DNA from: a virus
Lineage: Duplodnaviria; Heunggongvirae; Uroviricota; Caudoviricetes
Virus record (IMG/VR): IMGVR_UViG_2541047822_000003
DNA length: 53,032 nt
Direction: 5' to 3' (one strand)
Shown here: one piece after another, positions 7,624 to 14,197 of the stretch
Layout of the letters: each line of letters begins with the position of its first letter
How positions within the stretch are numbered: the first letter of the stretch is position 1
Notes under the pieces: model-generated
Databases searched by the model: none
Told to the model about the DNA's origin: nothing
Seen by the model: the letters and a program-made list of their open reading frames with translations, nothing else
Translations under genes and position numbers: made by a program

Positions 7624-7660
7624 TACCCATAGGTATTTAAAAAGTAAATACCCATGGGTA
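7624..7660. promoter_or_regulatory. Left operator-like region: two 12-bp palindromic sites (TACCCATAGGTA at 7624-7635; perfect palindrome TACCCATGGGTA at 7649-7660)
   Basis: Read directly; same motif recurs inverted at 8182-8193; lies between the racR 3' end and the ydaG start, where a pL/OL analogue is expected. Confidence 0.6.
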
Positions 7661-7702: not shown

Positions 7703-8122
7703 CTATGATGCGTTTTGTGCTTTCTTTTTACGGATTTCTTCGTAGATCATATTGTAATACTGTTTTTTCTCTTCAAGAGTTTTTAATAAGTTATCCGCTT
7801 CACTTTCTGGCAGTTCGTCTAAGAGATCTAAAAAAATACGTTGTCGTGGCGTTAGAACCCTTGTTTCATAACTGGAGGCTGTGTTCGTTGATGATGAAAC
7901 GATACCATCCATCCATCCCCGGGGTAACCCAAAGGACTCTTCGATAATCTCCACCATATCATCAGCGATCCGTTTTTTTCCCTTTTTCCCCTCTGGGTAC
8001 AACATTCTTGATACATAAGAAGGCTCGCGCCCGATCTTTCTGGCCACGTTAACCGCTTTACCATCGCATTTCTCATCACGAATTTTGATGAGTTGCTGTC
8101 GTCTAAATTCATATTTGTCCAT
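7703..8122 (-). CDS. racR: Prophage repressor (HTH), RacR-like
   Basis: 139-aa ORF with an HTH-like segment (GKAVNVARKIGREPSYVSRML); divergent from ydaS-ydaT and flanked by operator palindromes. Symbol assigned by synteny with Rac. Confidence 0.65.
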   Translation of the reverse strand: MDKYEFRRQQLIKIRDEKCDGKAVNVARKIGREPSYVSRMLYPEGKKGKKRIADDMVEIIEESFGLPRGWMDGIVSSSTNTASSYETRVLTPRQRIFLDLLDELPESEADNLLKTLEEKKQYYNMIYEEIRKKKAQNAS

Positions 8123-8150
8123 AGGTAAATAATAGATGCGATTACTGCAA

Positions 8151-8193
8151 GGTAAACAACCTGTGGGTATTGACTTTTGTTTACCTATGGGTA
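8151..8193. promoter_or_regulatory. Right operator-like region: 9-bp inverted repeat GGTAAACAA/TTGTTTACC (8151-8159, 8177-8185) plus sites CCTGTGGGTAT (8160-8170) and TACCTATGGGTA (8182-8193)
   Basis: Read directly in the 100-bp divergent racR/ydaS intergenic region; the second site is the reverse complement of the 7624-7635 site. Confidence 0.6.
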
Positions 8194-8222
8194 TTCTTTG
8201 CTGTGTTTACTAAGGAGTAGCT

Positions 8223-8504
8223 ATGGAAGAATTAAGAATATTTCTCAATTCTCTTTCGTCAGATGAACAGCGTATGTTTGCATGCGAGTGTGGTACCAGC
8301 ATCGGTTATCTAAGAAAGGCATTGAGTAAAGGTCAAGTGTTAGGGGCATCGTTATGTGTCCTTATTGAGCGAGCCAGTAATGGTGAAGTTACACGTCAGC
8401 AACTAAGGCCTTTTGATTGGATGAATATTTGGCCCGAGCTGGAAGATACCAAAATGTTAACACAACCACTTTCTAGGAGCTTGATTCATGAAAATCAAGC
8501 ATGA
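8223..8504 (+). CDS. ydaS: YdaS, Cro-like HTH protein (toxic when derepressed)
   Basis: 93-aa ORF; AAGGAG RBS at 8212-8217; recognised as Rac YdaS. Confidence 0.8.
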   Translation: MEELRIFLNSLSSDEQRMFACECGTSIGYLRKALSKGQVLGASLCVLIERASNGEVTRQQLRPFDWMNIWPELEDTKMLTQPLSRSLIHENQA

Positions 8505-8913
8505 ACACATCCGCATGGCGATGAATGCCTGGGCGCATCCGGACGGTGAAAAAGTTCCGGCAGCTGAAATAACCAGGGCTTATTTTGAACTGGGTATGAC
8601 GTTCCCAGAACTGTATGACGACAGCCATCCGGAAGCCCTGGCTCGCAATACCCAGAAAATTTTCCGCTGGGTAGAGAAAGACACCCCTGATGCAGTTGAA
8701 AAAATTCAGGCGTTGTTACCAGCTATCGAAAAAGCAATGCCACCTCTGCTGGTGGCCCGAATGCGCAGCCATAGCTCAGCCTATTTTCGGGAACTAGTGG
8801 AGACGCGGGAACGACTGGTGAGAGACGCTGATGATTTTGTCGCAGTGGCGATCGCTGGTTTCAACCAGATGAATCGTGGTGGCCCTGCAGGAAATATTGT
8901 GGCTGTGCATTGA
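8488..8913 (+). CDS. ydaT: YdaT (toxin partner of YdaS, CII-position protein)
   Basis: 141-aa ORF MKIKHEHIRMAMNAWAHPDGEK...; AGGAG RBS at 8475-8479; overlaps ydaS 3' end; recognised as Rac YdaT. Confidence 0.8.
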   Translation: MKIKHEHIRMAMNAWAHPDGEKVPAAEITRAYFELGMTFPELYDDSHPEALARNTQKIFRWVEKDTPDAVEKIQALLPAIEKAMPPLLVARMRSHSSAYFRELVETRERLVRDADDFVAVAIAGFNQMNRGGPAGNIVAVH

Positions 8914-8984
8914 CTCGCAATATTCATACCGGATCACTTCCGGCAATTTGTGAGTAAAAAGATTCGGTATCAAAAGAGGTGAGT

Positions 8985-10055
8985 ATGGCTAACGCCTGGC
9001 TCAGATTATGGCATGACATGCCAAATGACCCTAAGTGGCGAACAATTGCCAGGGTGTCAGGACAGCCAATTGCAACAGTGATGGCAGTGTATATCCACCT
9101 CCTGGTGAGCGCGTCACGAAATGTCACGCGAGGTCACATTGATGTCACGACAGAAGATTTGGCAAGTGCGCTCGACGTGACAGAAGAGGTAATTGATTCA
9201 ATTTTGCAGACGATGCAGGGGCGGGTACTTGATGGTGATTTAATCACTGGATGGGAAAAACGCCAGGTGCTTAAAGAGGACAACGGCAATATTTCGCAAA
9301 CCGCAAAATCTCCTGCAGAGCGCAAGAGGGCGCAGCGAGAGAGGGAAAGAAAGCGGGAACAAAATGGCGATTGTCACGGCGCGTCACGAAATGTCACGCA
9401 CATGTCACGACGAGTCACGACAGATAAAGATACAGATAAAGATACAGATCAAGAAGATCAAAACACTATGGTCCATGGCGTAAAAAACGCCACGAACCAG
9501 GCAGGGGATGTTCAGACCGTCAATCTTGGTCAGCCAGCAGGCACGACACCGGAAGCCGATTCAGCGTATGCGCTGAAAGCCGATTCGGGCGCTGTGCAGC
9601 AGGTGATGACCGCAAGGGCGGAGCAATCACACCAACTGCAGCAGCCTGAAGCCGATTCCGCCATTCAGCGGGAAGCCGATCGGGTAGTCCCGGAAAACAC
9701 CGGGCAGTCTGTGGGACGAGTGGATTATCCGGATGTGTTCGAACAGGTCTGGCGGGAGTACCCGTTGCGTGCTGGGGCAAACCCGAAGAAATCCGCTTTC
9801 AGTGCCTGGAAGGCCAGATTACGCGAGGGGGTGCCACCAGAGGCCATGCTGGATGGCGTGAGGCGTTACGCAAGATACTTGGCGGCTACCGGGAAAACGG
9901 GAACGGAATTTGTTCAGCGAGCGACGACGTTTTTTGGACCGGACCGGAATTTTGAGAACCCCTGGTTGCTCCCGGTAAGCGGCACGAACAACCAGCGTTG
10001 TGTGAATCATATTTCTGAACCGGATAACGAAATTCCGCCGGGCTTCAGGGGGTAA
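8985..10055 (+). CDS. Replication initiator, lambda O-like (replisome-organizer N-terminal domain)
   Basis: N-terminus MANAWLRLWHDMPNDPKWRTIARVSG... resembles phage replisome-organizer domains; the gene contains two iteron clusters and an acidic TDKDTDKDTDQEDQ linker. ATG 8985 preceded by AGAGG. Confidence 0.7.
   Translation: MANAWLRLWHDMPNDPKWRTIARVSGQPIATVMAVYIHLLVSASRNVTRGHIDVTTEDLASALDVTEEVIDSILQTMQGRVLDGDLITGWEKRQVLKEDNGNISQTAKSPAERKRAQRERERKREQNGDCHGASRNVTHMSRRVTTDKDTDKDTDQEDQNTMVHGVKNATNQAGDVQTVNLGQPAGTTPEADSAYALKADSGAVQQVMTARAEQSHQLQQPEADSAIQREADRVVPENTGQSVGRVDYPDVFEQVWREYPLRAGANPKKSAFSAWKARLREGVPPEAMLDGVRRYARYLAATGKTGTEFVQRATTFFGPDRNFENPWLLPVSGTNNQRCVNHISEPDNEIPPGFRG
9108..9150 (+). 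repeat. Iteron cluster 1 (4 x GTCAC[G/A] units) inside the O-like gene
   Basis: gcgcGTCACGaaatGTCACGcgagGTCACAttgatGTCACGac read directly; the first 21 bp recur exactly at 9379-9399. Confidence 0.7.
9371..9420 (+). repeat. Iteron cluster 2 (5 x GTCACG units) inside the O-like gene
   Basis: ttGTCACGgcgcGTCACGaaatGTCACGcacatGTCACGacgaGTCACGa read directly; candidate origin (ori) iterons. Confidence 0.7.
9421..9445 (+). repeat. Tandem direct repeat CAGATAAAGATA x2
   Basis: cagataaagatacagataaagatacagatc immediately after iteron cluster 2; encodes the acidic DKDTDKDTD linker. Confidence 0.6.
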
Positions 10056-10095
10056 GTGTTAATTTCTGGTCATGAGGTAATTTTCAGGAGGGCTT

Positions 10096-10518
10096 GTGGC
10101 AAAAGTTTTTACACAAGAAGAGCGGGAAAAAATTAAAGGGCAGGTTCTTGAACTCGTACGCCAGAGTGGACGCGAGACGTTACGACAACTGGAAGCTAAA
10201 ACTGGGGCAACAAGATATCTGATGAGCGTTCTGGCCAGAGAGCTGGTTGCCAGTGGCGATGTATACAATTCTGGCTACGGGTTATTCCCGTCTGAACAGG
10301 CTCGTAAAGACTGGCAAAATGCCCGCAAAAAATTATCGAGGGCAAAGCTGAAGAAACCGGTTGTGGTTGATCCGGACCTTATCTGGTCATTACCTGACGG
10401 AGAAATACGTCGCTACGACAGTCGCCTAAACATAATCTGTCGCGAGTGCCGGAAGAGCGAAGTTATGCAGCGCATATTGTCGTTTTATCAGGGGGATGTT
10501 CGGTATTTATTGAAGTGA
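10096..10518 (+). CDS. Hypothetical protein of the replication module
   Basis: 140-aa ORF with GTG start preceded by AGGAGG; downstream of the O-like gene; no recognisable motif. Confidence 0.5.
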   Translation: MAKVFTQEEREKIKGQVLELVRQSGRETLRQLEAKTGATRYLMSVLARELVASGDVYNSGYGLFPSEQARKDWQNARKKLSRAKLKKPVVVDPDLIWSLPDGEIRRYDSRLNIICRECRKSEVMQRILSFYQGDVRYLLK

Positions 10519-10574
10519 CGAGATTAAAGTGCATTAGTTCAGATGCAAATTGACATTTTGTGGCACAGGGTAGA

Positions 10575-10602
10575 GCTAGCGTGGTTGTCCGCTTTGTGCC
10601 AA
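10575..10602 (+). repeat. 28-bp palindrome-like junction element, copy A (ttgtccgcttt-GTGCCA-agagcagacgc)
   Basis: 11-6-11 architecture with GTGCCA core, shared with copies at 14258-14285 and 15424-15451; lies 250 bp upstream of the BCCT gene. Confidence 0.55.
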
Positions 10603-10852: not shown

Positions 10853-12856
10853 ATGATTATGAGTGAAAATGATACAACCCCAAAGAAGTCTACAAGCCAG
10901 ATTAACAAAGCGGTATTCTTTACATCTGCTTTGCTAATTTTCCTTCTTGTCGCCTTTGCCGCCGTATTCCCGGATGTCGCCGACAAAAATTTTAAACTAC
11001 TTCAGCAACAAATCTTCACGAATGCCAGCTGGTTCTACATACTTGCTGTGGCCCTGATTTTACTGAGCGTCACGTTCCTTGGACTCTCACGTTACGGTGA
11101 TATAAAGCTGGGCCCAGACCATGCGCAGCCTGATTTCAGCTACCACTCCTGGTTCGCGATGCTTTTTTCGGCAGGGATGGGGATCGGCCTGATGTTCTTT
11201 GGCGTTGCCGAACCTGTGATGCATTATCTTTCGCCACCTGTCGGCACTCCAGAGACCGTTGCGGCAGCGAAGGAAGCCATGCGCCTGACGTTCTTCCACT
11301 GGGGTCTGCACGCATGGGCAATTTATGCCATCGTGGCGCTGATTCTGGCCTTTTTCAGTTACCGTCACGGTCTGCCTTTAACGCTGCGTTCTGCGCTCTA
11401 TCCCATTATCGGCGATCGCATTTACGGGCCTATAGGCCACGCGGTTGATATCTTCGCCGTGATAGGCACTGTCTTTGGCGTTGCAACATCGCTGGGTTAC
11501 GGTGTATTGCAGGTGAATGCCGGTTTGAACCATCTTTTCGGCGTGCCCATCAATGAAACGGTACAGGTCATTTTGATCGTGGTCATCACGGGGTTAGCGA
11601 CGATTTCGGTGGTGTCCGGCCTGGACAAGGGAATACGCATCCTGTCTGAGCTTAATCTGGGCCTGGCGGTGTTGCTCCTGGCGCTGGTCTTGTGCCTGGG
11701 TCCCACTGTGCTTCTGCTGAAGTCATTTGTGGAAAATACGGGTGGTTATCTGTCGGAACTGGTGAGTAAAACGTTCAACCTTTACGCGTATGAACCCAAG
11801 TCGAGCAACTGGCTGGGGGGCTGGACATTATTATACTGGGGATGGTGGCTTTCATGGTCGCCGTTTGTAGGTATGTTCATTGCACGCGTTTCCCGCGGCA
11901 GGACAATTCGTGAGTTCGTGACTGGCGTGTTGTTTGTTCCCGCCGGCTTTACGCTCATGTGGATGACGGTGTTTGGAAACAGCGCCATCTATCTCATCAT
12001 GAACCAGGGCGCCACTGACCTCGCCAATACCGTTCAGCAGGATGTTGCGCTTGCCCTGTTTAATTTCCTGGAGCATTTCCCGTTCTCTTCCGTGCTGTCA
12101 TTCATTGCAATGGCGATGGTCATCGTCTTCTTTGTAACGTCTGCTGATTCGGGGGCAATGGTTGTGGATACTCTGGCATCAGGTGGGGTGGCAAACACGC
12201 CCGTCTGGCAGCGAATTTTCTGGGCATCGCTCATGGGCGTTGTTGCTATTGCCCTGCTGATCGCAGGGGGGCTGAGTGCGTTGCAAACCGTAACGATAGC
12301 GAGTGCATTGCCCTTCTCAGTTATCTTATTAATATCCATATACGGACTGTTAAAAGCCCTGCGTCGGGATTTGACCAAGCGTGAAAGCCTTAGCATGGCG
12401 ACTATTGCTCCTACGGCTGCACGTAACCCAATTCCCTGGCAGAGAAGGTTACGCAATATCGCGTATTTGCCGAAGCGCTCTCTTGTGAAACGTTTTATGG
12501 ACGACATTATCCAACCCGCCATGACGCTGGTTCAGGAGGAACTTAACAAGCAGGGAACGATAAGCCACATCAGTGACGCCGCCGAGGATCGTATTCGCCT
12601 TGAAGTCGATTTGGGCAACGAGCTGAATTATATATATGAAGTGAGGCTTCGCGGGTATAACTCACCGACCTTCGCGCTCGCTGCGCTGGATAATGATGAG
12701 CAGCAGAGTGAACAACATCGATATTATCGCGCTGAAGTCTATCTCAAAGAGGGCGGCCAAAATTATGATGTAATGGGCTGGAATCAGGAACAGCTGATTA
12801 ATGACATACTGGACCAGTACGAAAAACACCTGCACTTCCTGCATCTGGTTCGTTAA
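10853..12856 (+). CDS. BCCT-family transporter, BetT-like (choline/betaine-type osmoprotectant uptake)
   Basis: 667-aa polytopic membrane protein with the BCCT signature GWTLLYWGWWLSWSPFVGMFIARVSRGRTIREF and a BetT-like C-terminus (DILDQYEKHLHFLHL). Alternative start ATG 10859. Confidence 0.8.
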   Translation: MIMSENDTTPKKSTSQINKAVFFTSALLIFLLVAFAAVFPDVADKNFKLLQQQIFTNASWFYILAVALILLSVTFLGLSRYGDIKLGPDHAQPDFSYHSWFAMLFSAGMGIGLMFFGVAEPVMHYLSPPVGTPETVAAAKEAMRLTFFHWGLHAWAIYAIVALILAFFSYRHGLPLTLRSALYPIIGDRIYGPIGHAVDIFAVIGTVFGVATSLGYGVLQVNAGLNHLFGVPINETVQVILIVVITGLATISVVSGLDKGIRILSELNLGLAVLLLALVLCLGPTVLLLKSFVENTGGYLSELVSKTFNLYAYEPKSSNWLGGWTLLYWGWWLSWSPFVGMFIARVSRGRTIREFVTGVLFVPAGFTLMWMTVFGNSAIYLIMNQGATDLANTVQQDVALALFNFLEHFPFSSVLSFIAMAMVIVFFVTSADSGAMVVDTLASGGVANTPVWQRIFWASLMGVVAIALLIAGGLSALQTVTIASALPFSVILLISIYGLLKALRRDLTKRESLSMATIAPTAARNPIPWQRRLRNIAYLPKRSLVKRFMDDIIQPAMTLVQEELNKQGTISHISDAAEDRIRLEVDLGNELNYIYEVRLRGYNSPTFALAALDNDEQQSEQHRYYRAEVYLKEGGQNYDVMGWNQEQLINDILDQYEKHLHFLHLVR

Positions 12857-12863
12857 CAGCAAC

Positions 12864-12890
12864 ATGCCGCCACAGAGGCGGCATTTATTT
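12864..12890 (+). terminator. Rho-independent terminator-like hairpin after the BCCT gene
   Basis: ATGCCGCC-acaga-GGCGGCAT followed by TTATTT, 8 nt after the BCCT stop. Confidence 0.6.
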
Positions 12891-12919
12891 ATCCCGGCTG
12901 CAATATGAGGGAATGCAGA

Positions 12920-14197
12920 ATGATTTCACGCTGGAAATGGATGCTGAAGCAGACATTTAAAAAACTATGGTTCAGGGCAACGTTATTCGCAATTGTCGCA
13001 ATAATAACGGCCCTTTTATCAATTCTTTTTAAATCAATGATACCTGAGTCGGTTTCCGTGAAGGTTGGTGCGGAAGCAGTCGATAACATTCTGAACATAC
13101 TGGCATCGAGTATGCTGGCAGTGACCACATTTTCGCTGAGCATCATGGTCACAGCCTACGGTTCAGCCACTACTAATGTGACTCCCAGAGCTACTCGTTT
13201 AGTTGTTGAAGACGTCACCACACAAAATGTACTGGCCACCTTCATCGGTTCTTTTCTCTTCAGTCTGGTAGGGATTATTGCCCTCAATATGGGAGCTTAT
13301 GGAGAAAGGGGGAGAGTCATTTTATTCATTGTAACACTGGTTGTCATTGCCTTAATCCTCATCACATTGCTTCGCTGGATACAGCATTTGACCTCTCTGG
13401 GGAGGGTTGGTGAGACAACGGCAAAAGTAGAACAGGCGGCCATCGAAACATTTATTGCGAGAGCAAGAAATCCCTGTCTCGGCGGATATCCATGGCTTGA
13501 GAACAATGAACAGCCGAAAGGAACGGTTGCAGTTTATCCGAAAAAGATTGGCTATGTTGAATATGTTGATATGGTGAAACTCAGCAAGCTGCTGACCAAT
13601 GATCCCCGTCATGTATACCTCGTGGCGCAGCCGGGCAGTTTCATACATCCGTCCACGCCAGTTTTGTACCTGAGTCAGGGCCAGGAGTCATCAATCAGCA
13701 CCGATTTACTTGAGACGATTATTGTCTCGGATGTACGTTCATTTGCTCAGGACCCCCGATTTTGTCTTAGCGTCATGGCCGAAATAGCCTGCCGAGCCCT
13801 TTCCCCCGCAGTGAACGATCCTGGAACCGCCATTGATGTCATTGGCAGAGGTGTACGTATACTTTCCGCTTACGCGCAGAATAAATCTGATGAAATAGAA
13901 GTGAAATATCCTTCTGTACATGTTGCACCACTTCAGAATAACGATCTACTTGAAGACTTTTTCTCACCTGTTGCGCGCGATGGTGCCAGTATGAGGGAAA
14001 TTCAGATAAGGGTACTTAAAGGACTGTCGATGCTGAGTAAGGGTTGGCCTGGAATTTTTGCTGAAGCCGCACAAACCCTAGCATTTGAAACATTAGAGCA
14101 TGCTACTCGTGCTGACCATATAGATTCTGATAGATATCTAATAAAATCAATTTATTATAATTTATTTAGTGGCGAAGATTCTAATAAAAAACCATAG
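12920..14197 (+). CDS. Membrane protein, DUF2254-like (4 N-terminal TM helices plus soluble C-terminal domain)
   Basis: ORF 12905-14197; start preferred at ATG 12920 (GAGGGA 7 nt upstream). Four hydrophobic helices then a soluble domain; family call is from recall, not a search. Confidence 0.65.
   Translation: MISRWKWMLKQTFKKLWFRATLFAIVAIITALLSILFKSMIPESVSVKVGAEAVDNILNILASSMLAVTTFSLSIMVTAYGSATTNVTPRATRLVVEDVTTQNVLATFIGSFLFSLVGIIALNMGAYGERGRVILFIVTLVVIALILITLLRWIQHLTSLGRVGETTAKVEQAAIETFIARARNPCLGGYPWLENNEQPKGTVAVYPKKIGYVEYVDMVKLSKLLTNDPRHVYLVAQPGSFIHPSTPVLYLSQGQESSISTDLLETIIVSDVRSFAQDPRFCLSVMAEIACRALSPAVNDPGTAIDVIGRGVRILSAYAQNKSDEIEVKYPSVHVAPLQNNDLLEDFFSPVARDGASMREIQIRVLKGLSMLSKGWPGIFAEAAQTLAFETLEHATRADHIDSDRYLIKSIYYNLFSGEDSNKKP

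Follow-up and report, generated by a model that had tools for sequence, protein, structure and literature searches.

In phage lambda the replication origin lies inside the initiator gene O, in the part that encodes the linker between a DNA-binding N-terminal domain and a partner-binding C-terminal domain, and its iterons are followed by an A-rich, purine-skewed tract and then by a palindrome. In phage SPP1, oriL is situated inside gene 38, the origin repeats thus being within the initiator's own gene. The same short repeat in two clusters, served by one initiator and with one cluster having an auxiliary or control role, is known from P4 (ori and crr), P1 (incA) and F (incC). The SPP1 initiator, G38P, is reported to bind two separate regions, oriL and oriR (PMC3485210), and SPP1 is reported to have its own helicase and loader (PMC3561973). 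Among enterobacterial lambdoid phages, 34 of 314 have a replication module with an O homologue only; according to a 2025 survey none of these has been studied and their replication is not understood (PMC12315714). Here we describe a candidate origin in a 53,032-nt stretch of tailed-phage DNA (IMG/VR record IMGVR_UViG_2541047822_000003; the whole stretch is called the window): two arrays of a hexameric repeat and an A-rich tract, all inside the gene of a putative replication initiator of 356 amino acids (8985..10055, + strand). We put the probability that the two arrays, the tract and their host gene form a self-contained phage replication origin cassette at about 75%; the individual steps of the mechanism are less certain than the origin call. 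Coordinates are positions in the window, and gene offsets (+n) are counted within the initiator gene.

Array 1 (9113..9149, + strand) consists of four GT(C)AC(G/A) hexamers at 9113, 9123, 9133 and 9144, spaced by 10, 10 and 11 bp, and array 2 (9373..9419, + strand), the proposed origin core, of five GTCACG hexamers at 9373, 9383, 9393, 9404 and 9414, spaced by 10, 10, 11 and 10 bp, which in both cases amounts to about one copy per helical turn. An earlier note on this DNA had pointed out nine GTCAC(G/A) units in two clusters, and all nine forward copies are there; it had overlooked a tenth, inverted copy (9176..9181, - strand; CGTGAC as read on the + strand), which codes for D64-V65-T66. The 21-bp repeat that the note found to be shared by the two clusters (gcgcgtcacgaaatgtcacgc, two hexamers plus spacer) is indeed exact, with copies at 9109..9129 and 9379..9399 (+ strand) that encode ASRNVT twice; their separation is 270 bp, in frame, and not 271 bp. 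Counted over the window, GTCACR has 46 matches in 53 kb, of which ten fall within 307 bp, and at least three GTCAC/GTGAC copies per 50 bp occur only at arrays 1 and 2, the expectation being 0.08 per 50 bp. These counts rule out chance as the source of the clustering, and the comparative evidence clears the remaining doubt.

Relatives of the initiator gene were sampled from one-genome-per-species contigs (39 fetched) and from phage records. About 26 of them keep GTCAC at gene offsets +129, +139, +149 and +160, among phages and prophages of Escherichia, Pseudomonas, Aeromonas, Bordetella, Acidovorax, Stenotrophomonas, Chromobacterium and others. The number of copies ranges from four to six in array 1 and from three to five in array 2 (within +369 to +499, with the 10-11 bp spacing kept), and changes in both arrays are whole-repeat steps, two Escherichia relatives having 6+4 and 6+5 copies in arrays 1 and 2. 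Most relatives of the GTCACG class also keep the inverted copy, at offset +193, and its conservation is partial, the majority-base frequency being 0.70-0.87 per position. Within 47 near-identical IMG/VR alleles, the substitutions in 9100-9470 sit in the spacers, with one alone inside a hexamer; the best 80 matches of the IMG/VR scan were all near-identical, and they inform on population variation rather than on new motif classes.

In both arrays the hexamer is found in each of the three codon phases, with different peptides as the result. Synonymous constraint was assessed at the third positions of conserved degenerate codons in 23 GTCACG-class homologues with a median nucleotide identity of 69%. 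The mean entropy was 0.21 bit inside the hexamers versus 1.42 bit at 37 comparable positions outside them (Mann-Whitney, p = 5e-6), and an Arg third position located between two hexamers was unconstrained (1.75 bit in the same homologues). Relatives without GTCACG use another word in both arrays, either GTAACG (L027, L031, L037 and L039) or CGAACG (L034, L036, L038 and L041), and in 38 of 43 loci the commonest array-1 hexamer is also present in array 2, being rare elsewhere or in the flanks. Because the repeats occupy three codon phases, have near-invariant synonymous sites and switch word jointly, they constitute a DNA-level element, and the codon-level repetition that the earlier note had named as a possible refutation is contradicted. 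The arrays show at least three phased direct repeats and a DNA conservation that co-evolves with the initiator, as in iteron-type origins; this is the signature of protein-binding iterons, here predicted sites, that co-evolve with the protein that reads them.

The loop encoded by array 1 (9113-9149, amino acids 43-55) is the only segment of the N-domain that differs between iteron classes: it reads SRNVTRGH in one class and NATERGRTQ or NETRGNATV in others (compare L034, L036, L037, L038 and L039). The DNA site, rather than protein function, may keep its seemingly invariant residues in place; alternatively, the loop may help in recognition, and array 1 might be a site that encodes part of its own reader. 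Two relatives, from Serratia (L042, 2501-3691) and Pantoea (L043, 2501-3805), keep the N-terminal domain without recognisable hexamer arrays; their C-terminal part is longer and quite different, and L043 has TACGTAGTA-like repeats instead.

Directly 3' of array 2 lies the A-rich tract (9420..9466, + strand), a candidate DNA-unwinding element with 70% A+T, 72% purine on the top strand and two GATC sites. The G+C minimum of the gene (0.30 at 9420-9459) falls here, and so does the gene's least stable 30-mer, which starts at 9424 and has a free energy of -31.9 versus a gene mean of -42.6 (standard deviation 3.2; 3.3 standard deviations off); this places an easily melted A+T-rich region next to the iterons. 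The tract opens with the 12-mer ACAGATAAAGAT, for which the repeat search returned two exact tandem copies at 9420-9443, as reported in the earlier note, and a third at 83% at 9444-9455 (+ strand). The copy number of this 12-mer is polymorphic, since two IMG/VR alleles that are otherwise 99% identical (L123 and L124) carry three exact copies instead of two. The note had taken the tandem as the code of an acidic linker; it does encode linker, and it is also a conserved DNA element that relatives read in other frames. In 24 of 35 loci, and in three codon phases, AGAT[AT] begins exactly 8 nt past the last iteron; seven loci read the tract in another frame, which gives PQIRE..., SHDRLDK... or SNAQIRLDK instead of TDKD. 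The A-rich tract is itself a DNA element, with a fixed junction to the last iteron. Its two GATC (Dam) sites are 9 bp apart (9447-9459, CAGATCAAGAAGATC), and several relatives have a GATC at the tract end too (AAAGATCTAAAA).

An imperfect palindrome, TGGTCCATGGCGT-aaaaa-ACGCCACGAACCA (9469..9499), with 13-nt arms and 11 Watson-Crick pairs, directly follows the tract; its significance is uncertain. Palindromes of the relatives are treated as suggestive only, because short inverted repeats of such score are common by chance. Eight relatives (L003, L012, L016, L018, L021, L027, L029 and L031) have a G+C-rich element, CCCCCC-N(3-6)-CCCCCC and then GGGGG, 40-70 nt past the last iteron and after the A-rich tract, which encodes PPLNPP-type peptides, is able to form an inverted repeat and differs from the palindrome of the window. 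A mosaic junction was located at 9442..9451. Against relatives from E. coli and E. albertii whose C-terminal halves are of another type, nucleotide similarity drops from 80-100% to about 50% at about 9442, and similarity to Pseudomonas phages stops at query position 467 (9451 in the window). Because similarity breaks at these points, a single inherited module is made up of the N-domain, the two arrays and the beginning of the tract. No DnaA box (TTWTNCACA) was found in the initiator gene, and a DnaA-dependent origin was therefore dropped.

The initiator gene, preceded by a good ribosome-binding site, encodes a protein that is O-like in function and is labelled hypothetical in RefSeq. The open reading frame matches phrog_3729, 'replication initiation protein', end to end. 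Scanning the protein against Pfam gave no family (no PF04492, PF09681, PF21984 or PF17948), and the NCBIfam scan gave nothing but a weak DnaT match at the tail. Remote PHROG matches were to 'replisome organizer' families (phrog_4880, E 6e-6; phrog_5968, E 2e-4), with E values of 6e-6 to 1e-9 for 'replisome organizer' and 'DnaD-like helicase loader' families. An AlphaFold model, built from an alignment of 37 sequences, has a DnaD-like winged-helix N-domain, a disordered linker and a helical C-domain. The N-domain is confidently modelled (10-residue block means of 77-96 for residues 11-90), with helices at 2-14, 16-25, 29-45, 56-63 and 67-77 plus a beta wing; a basic helix lies at 110-127, residues 135-235 are disordered (predicted local distance difference test, pLDDT, below 50), and the C-domain at 245-330 is again confident (pLDDT 81-95). 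The modelled N-domain has a winged-helix fold of the DnaD N-terminal type, its nearest neighbours being the DnaD N-terminal domain and a RepA_N-type plasmid initiator. Mapped onto this model, array 1 codes for the end of helix 29-45 and the loop 46-55, the inverted copy for the turn of the helix-turn-helix, and array 2 with the A-rich tract for the start of the disordered linker.

Remote PHROG matches and the predicted fold alone, with no Pfam match to the window protein, argue for membership in the replisome-organizer family. The N-domain family comprises 952 protein clusters from gamma- and beta-proteobacteria, named 'phage replisome organizer' or 'DnaT-like ssDNA-binding domain-containing protein'. 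When the 37 aligned proteins were scanned against Pfam, DnaD_N was found in five, HTH_36 in six, Phage_rep_O in one and PF17948 in six; the DnaD_N, HTH_36 and Phage_rep_O matches probably come from proteins that share only the C-domain, HTH_36 being on record for several.

The C-terminal half is an exchangeable adaptor that tracks the downstream helicase or loader gene. It comprises the helical domain (coding region 9717..9974, + strand; amino acids 245-330) and a tail, SGTNNQRCVNHISEPDNEIPPGFRG (9978..10052, + strand; amino acids 332-356), that resembles the last 25 residues of host DnaT. By BLASTP the end of the window protein, ...VNHISEPDNEIPPGFRG, is identical to the E. coli DnaT end at 15 of 25 residues (60%, E 2e-8); the tail corresponds to positions 156-179 of the 179 of the NCBIfam DnaT model, and the family profile matches the DnaT C-terminal-domain structures 6aep and 9zbt_D. 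As a whole the window protein does not qualify as a DnaT (PF17948, NF002770), the match covering the last 24-25 residues only; PF17948, the DnaT DNA-binding domain, is on record for many N-domain relatives. C-terminal halves differ among the N-domain relatives, and the C-domain of the window also occurs with HTH_36-type N-domains in front of it and, in one case, with a Phage_rep_O N-domain.

Downstream of the initiator gene, relatives carry a lambda-P-like loader (L005, L007, L008 and L029), a DnaC/IstB-like loader (L004, L031, L039 and L022), a primase-helicase (L003, L017 and L021) or a DnaB-like helicase (L019 and L037), and no recognisable helicase or loader lies downstream in the window, L018 and L026. 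An LDxxxDW tail like that of lambda O (...LDLTNTDWIYGVDL) ends three of the four initiators with a P-like gene (L005, L007 and L029, not L008). Tails of the (P/A/D)GF(R/N/S) type occur in six loci, all with a DnaC-like loader or no loader and never with a P-like one. This co-occurrence comes from a small sample without phylogenetic correction. Ends of the KVIEG(K/N)Y... type accompany DnaB-like helicases. A structural paper on DnaT (PMC13377028) gives no contact partner for the DnaT C-terminal tail, and the partner of the DnaT-like tail is for this reason a guess.

We propose that the hexamers are the binding sites of the winged-helix N-domain, with one protein to each turn of the helix and all of them on the same face of the DNA. 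Array 2 (9373-9419) and the A-rich tract (9420-9466) would be the core and the site of duplex opening, as at the origin of lambda, a role that we infer from the layout and the duplex stability. Array 1 and the inverted copy would act as an auxiliary binding array about 230 bp upstream, the weakest step of the proposal; the array 1 complex probably pairs with array 2 through protein contacts, looping or wrapping the intervening 230 bp or so, or has a controlling role in initiation. Transcription running rightward through the gene may help, as it does in lambda. The C-terminal half would bring in the helicase; since the phage encodes neither helicase nor loader here, host DnaC/DnaB or the restart primosome is the probable target of recruitment by the DnaT-like tail. 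A broader reading, which we offer as speculative and more probably wrong than right, is that in O-only phages a single protein reads bipartite, one-per-turn hexamers, opens a fixed-register AGATAA tract and recruits the host helicase through a peptide copied from DnaT; the co-occurrence of tail type with loader type, a small pattern, supports it. If it were true, the tail peptide would be a portable recruitment signal for DnaC/DnaB (or the primosome), and a pointer to the hand-over from DnaT to DnaB/DnaC, a step that a 2026 preprimosome structure paper left open.

Several explanations compete with all or part of this proposal. The one that deserves most attention, although we consider it unlikely, leaves the origin to array 2 and the A-rich tract and makes array 1 a control element instead of part of the initiation complex, either for copy control ('handcuffing') by titrating or pairing the initiator, or as a roadblock that throttles the gene's own transcription and origin activation. 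P1 incA and F incC belong to iteron systems that use second arrays for control and provide the precedent; no A-rich tract adjoins array 1, its architecture of four direct copies and one inverted copy is fixed and stays conserved however many copies array 2 has, and the distance between the arrays varies (array 2 starts at +369 to +479), which speaks against strict phasing. Nothing separates control from assembly, however, the two roles are not exclusive, and no relative was seen that has array 2 and lacks array 1. It is far less probable that the hexamers serve another protein or function (the cII/YdaT-like or DUF977 product, partition, packaging or a host factor) and are in the initiator gene by happenstance. 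Direct repeats of 10-11 bp in two clusters do also make up plasmid centromeres such as R1 parC, and YdaT-like and DUF977 genes often accompany the initiator gene in E. coli, but from genus to genus the arrays stay with the N-domain, whereas the genes on either side are replaced (as in Pseudomonas and Aeromonas phages), the DUF977 gene is absent in most relatives and no partition genes are present. Moreover, the motif class changes with the gene lineage, and the succession of iterons, A-rich tract and palindrome fits an origin.

The two remaining alternatives need no binding protein, and we find both scarcely credible. If the repeats were a by-product of protein repetition or slippage, through duplication of ASRNVT or a low-complexity DK/DT linker, the in-frame position of the 21-mer, which encodes the same six residues twice, and the variable copy number of the 12-mer tandem would be accounted for. 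Such a process does not explain that the hexamer encodes different peptides in three codon phases, that four- and six-fold degenerate third positions are fixed inside the hexamers and free beside them, that the AGATAA junction is kept where the frame gives PQIRE or SHDRLDK for TDKD, or that both arrays switch motif together. Conservation of synonymous sites could also reflect mRNA structure or a translational signal, and the inverted copy could pair with a forward one; yet RNA pairing does not account for nine copies out of ten being direct repeats spaced by a helical turn, the Rfam scan of the gene gave nothing credible and no matching family, and whole-repeat copy steps with a joint motif switch fit protein-binding DNA repeats.

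The following points weigh against an origin of the proposed kind in the window. The prophage is degraded (insertion sequence element, truncated tail and coat genes), and function in place is thus unproven. The tract is only moderately A+T-rich, at 70%, and four nearby 30-mers in intergenic or promoter regions are equally unstable. The sequence of the palindrome is not conserved among the relatives, which often carry another G+C-rich inverted repeat there. Residues specific to an iteron class were sought by eye in the recognition helix and wing and none was found; none is discernible because the sole class-variable protein segment is the one encoded by array 1. Lambda has nothing that corresponds to array 1, whose role is a guess. 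Initiator-iteron binding, unwinding and replication are predicted from sequence, no such data for the family having been found in the searchable literature.

The gene stands downstream of an immunity and early-control block (7703..8913) that comprises a cI-like repressor gene (7703-8122, - strand; immunity region) and the early-control genes cro/YdaS-like (8223-8504, + strand) and cII/YdaT-like (8488-8913, + strand). Promoter-like hexamers are present on both strands at 8129-8197, promoter and terminator scans being at chance level; rightward transcription from the immunity region would cross the origin. Just past the end of the cI-like gene, a perfect-looking palindrome with a 16-bp stem (7624-7660, TACCCATAGGTATTTA...) scored as terminator-like on the - strand. 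The initiator gene is followed by a DUF977/Ren-like gene (10096..10518, + strand; Pfam DUF977, E 2e-28; phrog_142, 'Ren-like exclusion protein'), which is not recognisable as a helicase or loader. A BCCT-family transporter gene and a DUF2254 gene (10853-14197) come directly after it, cargo that occupies the place of the lambdoid nin-region genes and where the LF82 prophage Tritos has other genes.

A Rac-type prophage of E. coli EC21Z-048, situated at ttcA, matches the 2.4 kb from 8200 to 10600 with 100% identity; this prophage bears an IS3 insertion and cargo transporters, and its coat and tape-measure genes are truncated. This 2.4-kb module is covered to at least 80% in 1561 of 5426 complete E. 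coli genomes, and at least 590 IMG/VR contigs encode relatives of the initiator. Eleven matches in a plasmid collection were large 'non-mobilizable' or chromosome-sized records and say nothing on autonomous replication. Tritos, the prophage of E. coli LF82, was obtained as a plaque isolate and grown on a derivative of MG1655 (PMC9928086). Its initiator gene is 98.9% identical to that of the window (12 nt differences and four amino-acid changes, none in 9100-9470), and in Tritos, too, the DUF977 gene is the neighbour, with no further replication gene annotated. The earlier note supposed that the replication module is still functional despite the inactivated tail; with an intact gene that is near-identical to that of Tritos, this is plausible, and the cassette of the window is very probably competent even though the prophage around it has decayed.

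No published description of this origin was found in the searchable literature. Two 'Eru' papers on replication regions that non-lambdoid Stx phages carry mention no iterons, origin or DnaT, and for oriJ/Rac and 'DnaT-like' no paper on such an origin was found, judged by titles and abstracts. An origin embedded in an initiator gene is unsurprising in principle; this one is well supported and very widespread. Its initiator family is very common yet annotated as hypothetical and has no Pfam model. A defined cis-acting origin, with two arrays, an A-rich tract and three word classes, gives a testable minimal replicon for prophage-derived vectors and a means to predict the replication incompatibility or specificity of prophages, among them those relatives that occur in Shigella and in pathogenic E. 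coli. The locus is also an entry point to the start of replication in lambdoid phages without a helicase loader, and an example of overlapping codes, in which the invariant residues NVTRGH appear to be held by the constraint on a DNA-binding site and not by protein function.

Among described systems, lambda provides the closest parallel in layout. The window has the same order of iterons, A-rich purine-skewed tract and palindrome, in the code of the corresponding linker, and at nearly the same place: the four lambda iterons occupy +349 to +433 of O and its least stable 30-mer is at +446, against +389 to +435 and +440 in the window. In both, the N-domain and origin are swapped as a unit among mosaic phages, and the gene belongs to the rightward early operon, after cro and cII or their analogues. 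The lambda-analogous placing of origin iterons inside an O-like initiator gene, which the earlier note put forward, is supported by the DNA conservation, the joint motif change and this lambda-like order at the same offset. The parallel holds for array 2; array 1, 230 bp upstream and inside the code of the DNA-binding domain, is an addition with no equivalent in lambda. The lambda iterons are also of another kind, 18-19 bp long with internal dyad symmetry and spaced 20-24 bp apart, whereas the window repeats a 6-bp core directly every 10-11 bp, and the window lacks the P-like loader gene that some relatives have. 'O-like' is accordingly apt by analogy and not by homology: hhalign of the family profile against lambda O gave a probability of 0.1%, and there was no PF04492 match. 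Membership in the lambda O family (PF04492, Phage_rep_O) was rejected, since neither N-domain homology nor the lambda-type iterons and P loader were found.

With SPP1 G38P and the DnaD-like initiators of Firmicutes, relatives of the window protein share the NCBI name 'phage replisome organizer' and the window protein a similar N-domain fold. As in SPP1, repeats lie in the initiator's own gene and there are two separate initiator-bound regions, although in the window binding is predicted, both arrays are in one gene and 230 bp rather than tens of kilobases apart, the protein has no PF09681 match and the hosts are proteobacterial. The fold of the N-domain is also close to that of RepA_N-type initiators such as RepA of a staphylococcal multiresistance plasmid (PDB 4pta), with no sequence similarity detected; those systems are Gram-positive plasmids with a single central array and a C-domain that has other host partners. 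The repeat clusters of P4, P1 and F are kilobases apart or flank a gene instead of lying inside it, and their initiators are unrelated, P4 alpha being a primase-helicase. With E. coli DnaT the window protein shares the C-terminus (...VNxxSEPDxxIPPGFRG); in place of the DnaT N-domain its N-terminal half is a winged helix with a predicted origin-binding role, and PF17948 is missing. By modelled fold and in-gene repeats, the element thus resembles the DnaD-like initiators of the SPP1 G38P and RepA_N type. What sets it apart is the combination of a 6-bp core repeated once per turn, a second array inside the code of the DNA-binding domain, three related word classes, a fixed-register AGATAA tract and a DnaT-like tail where no loader is encoded.

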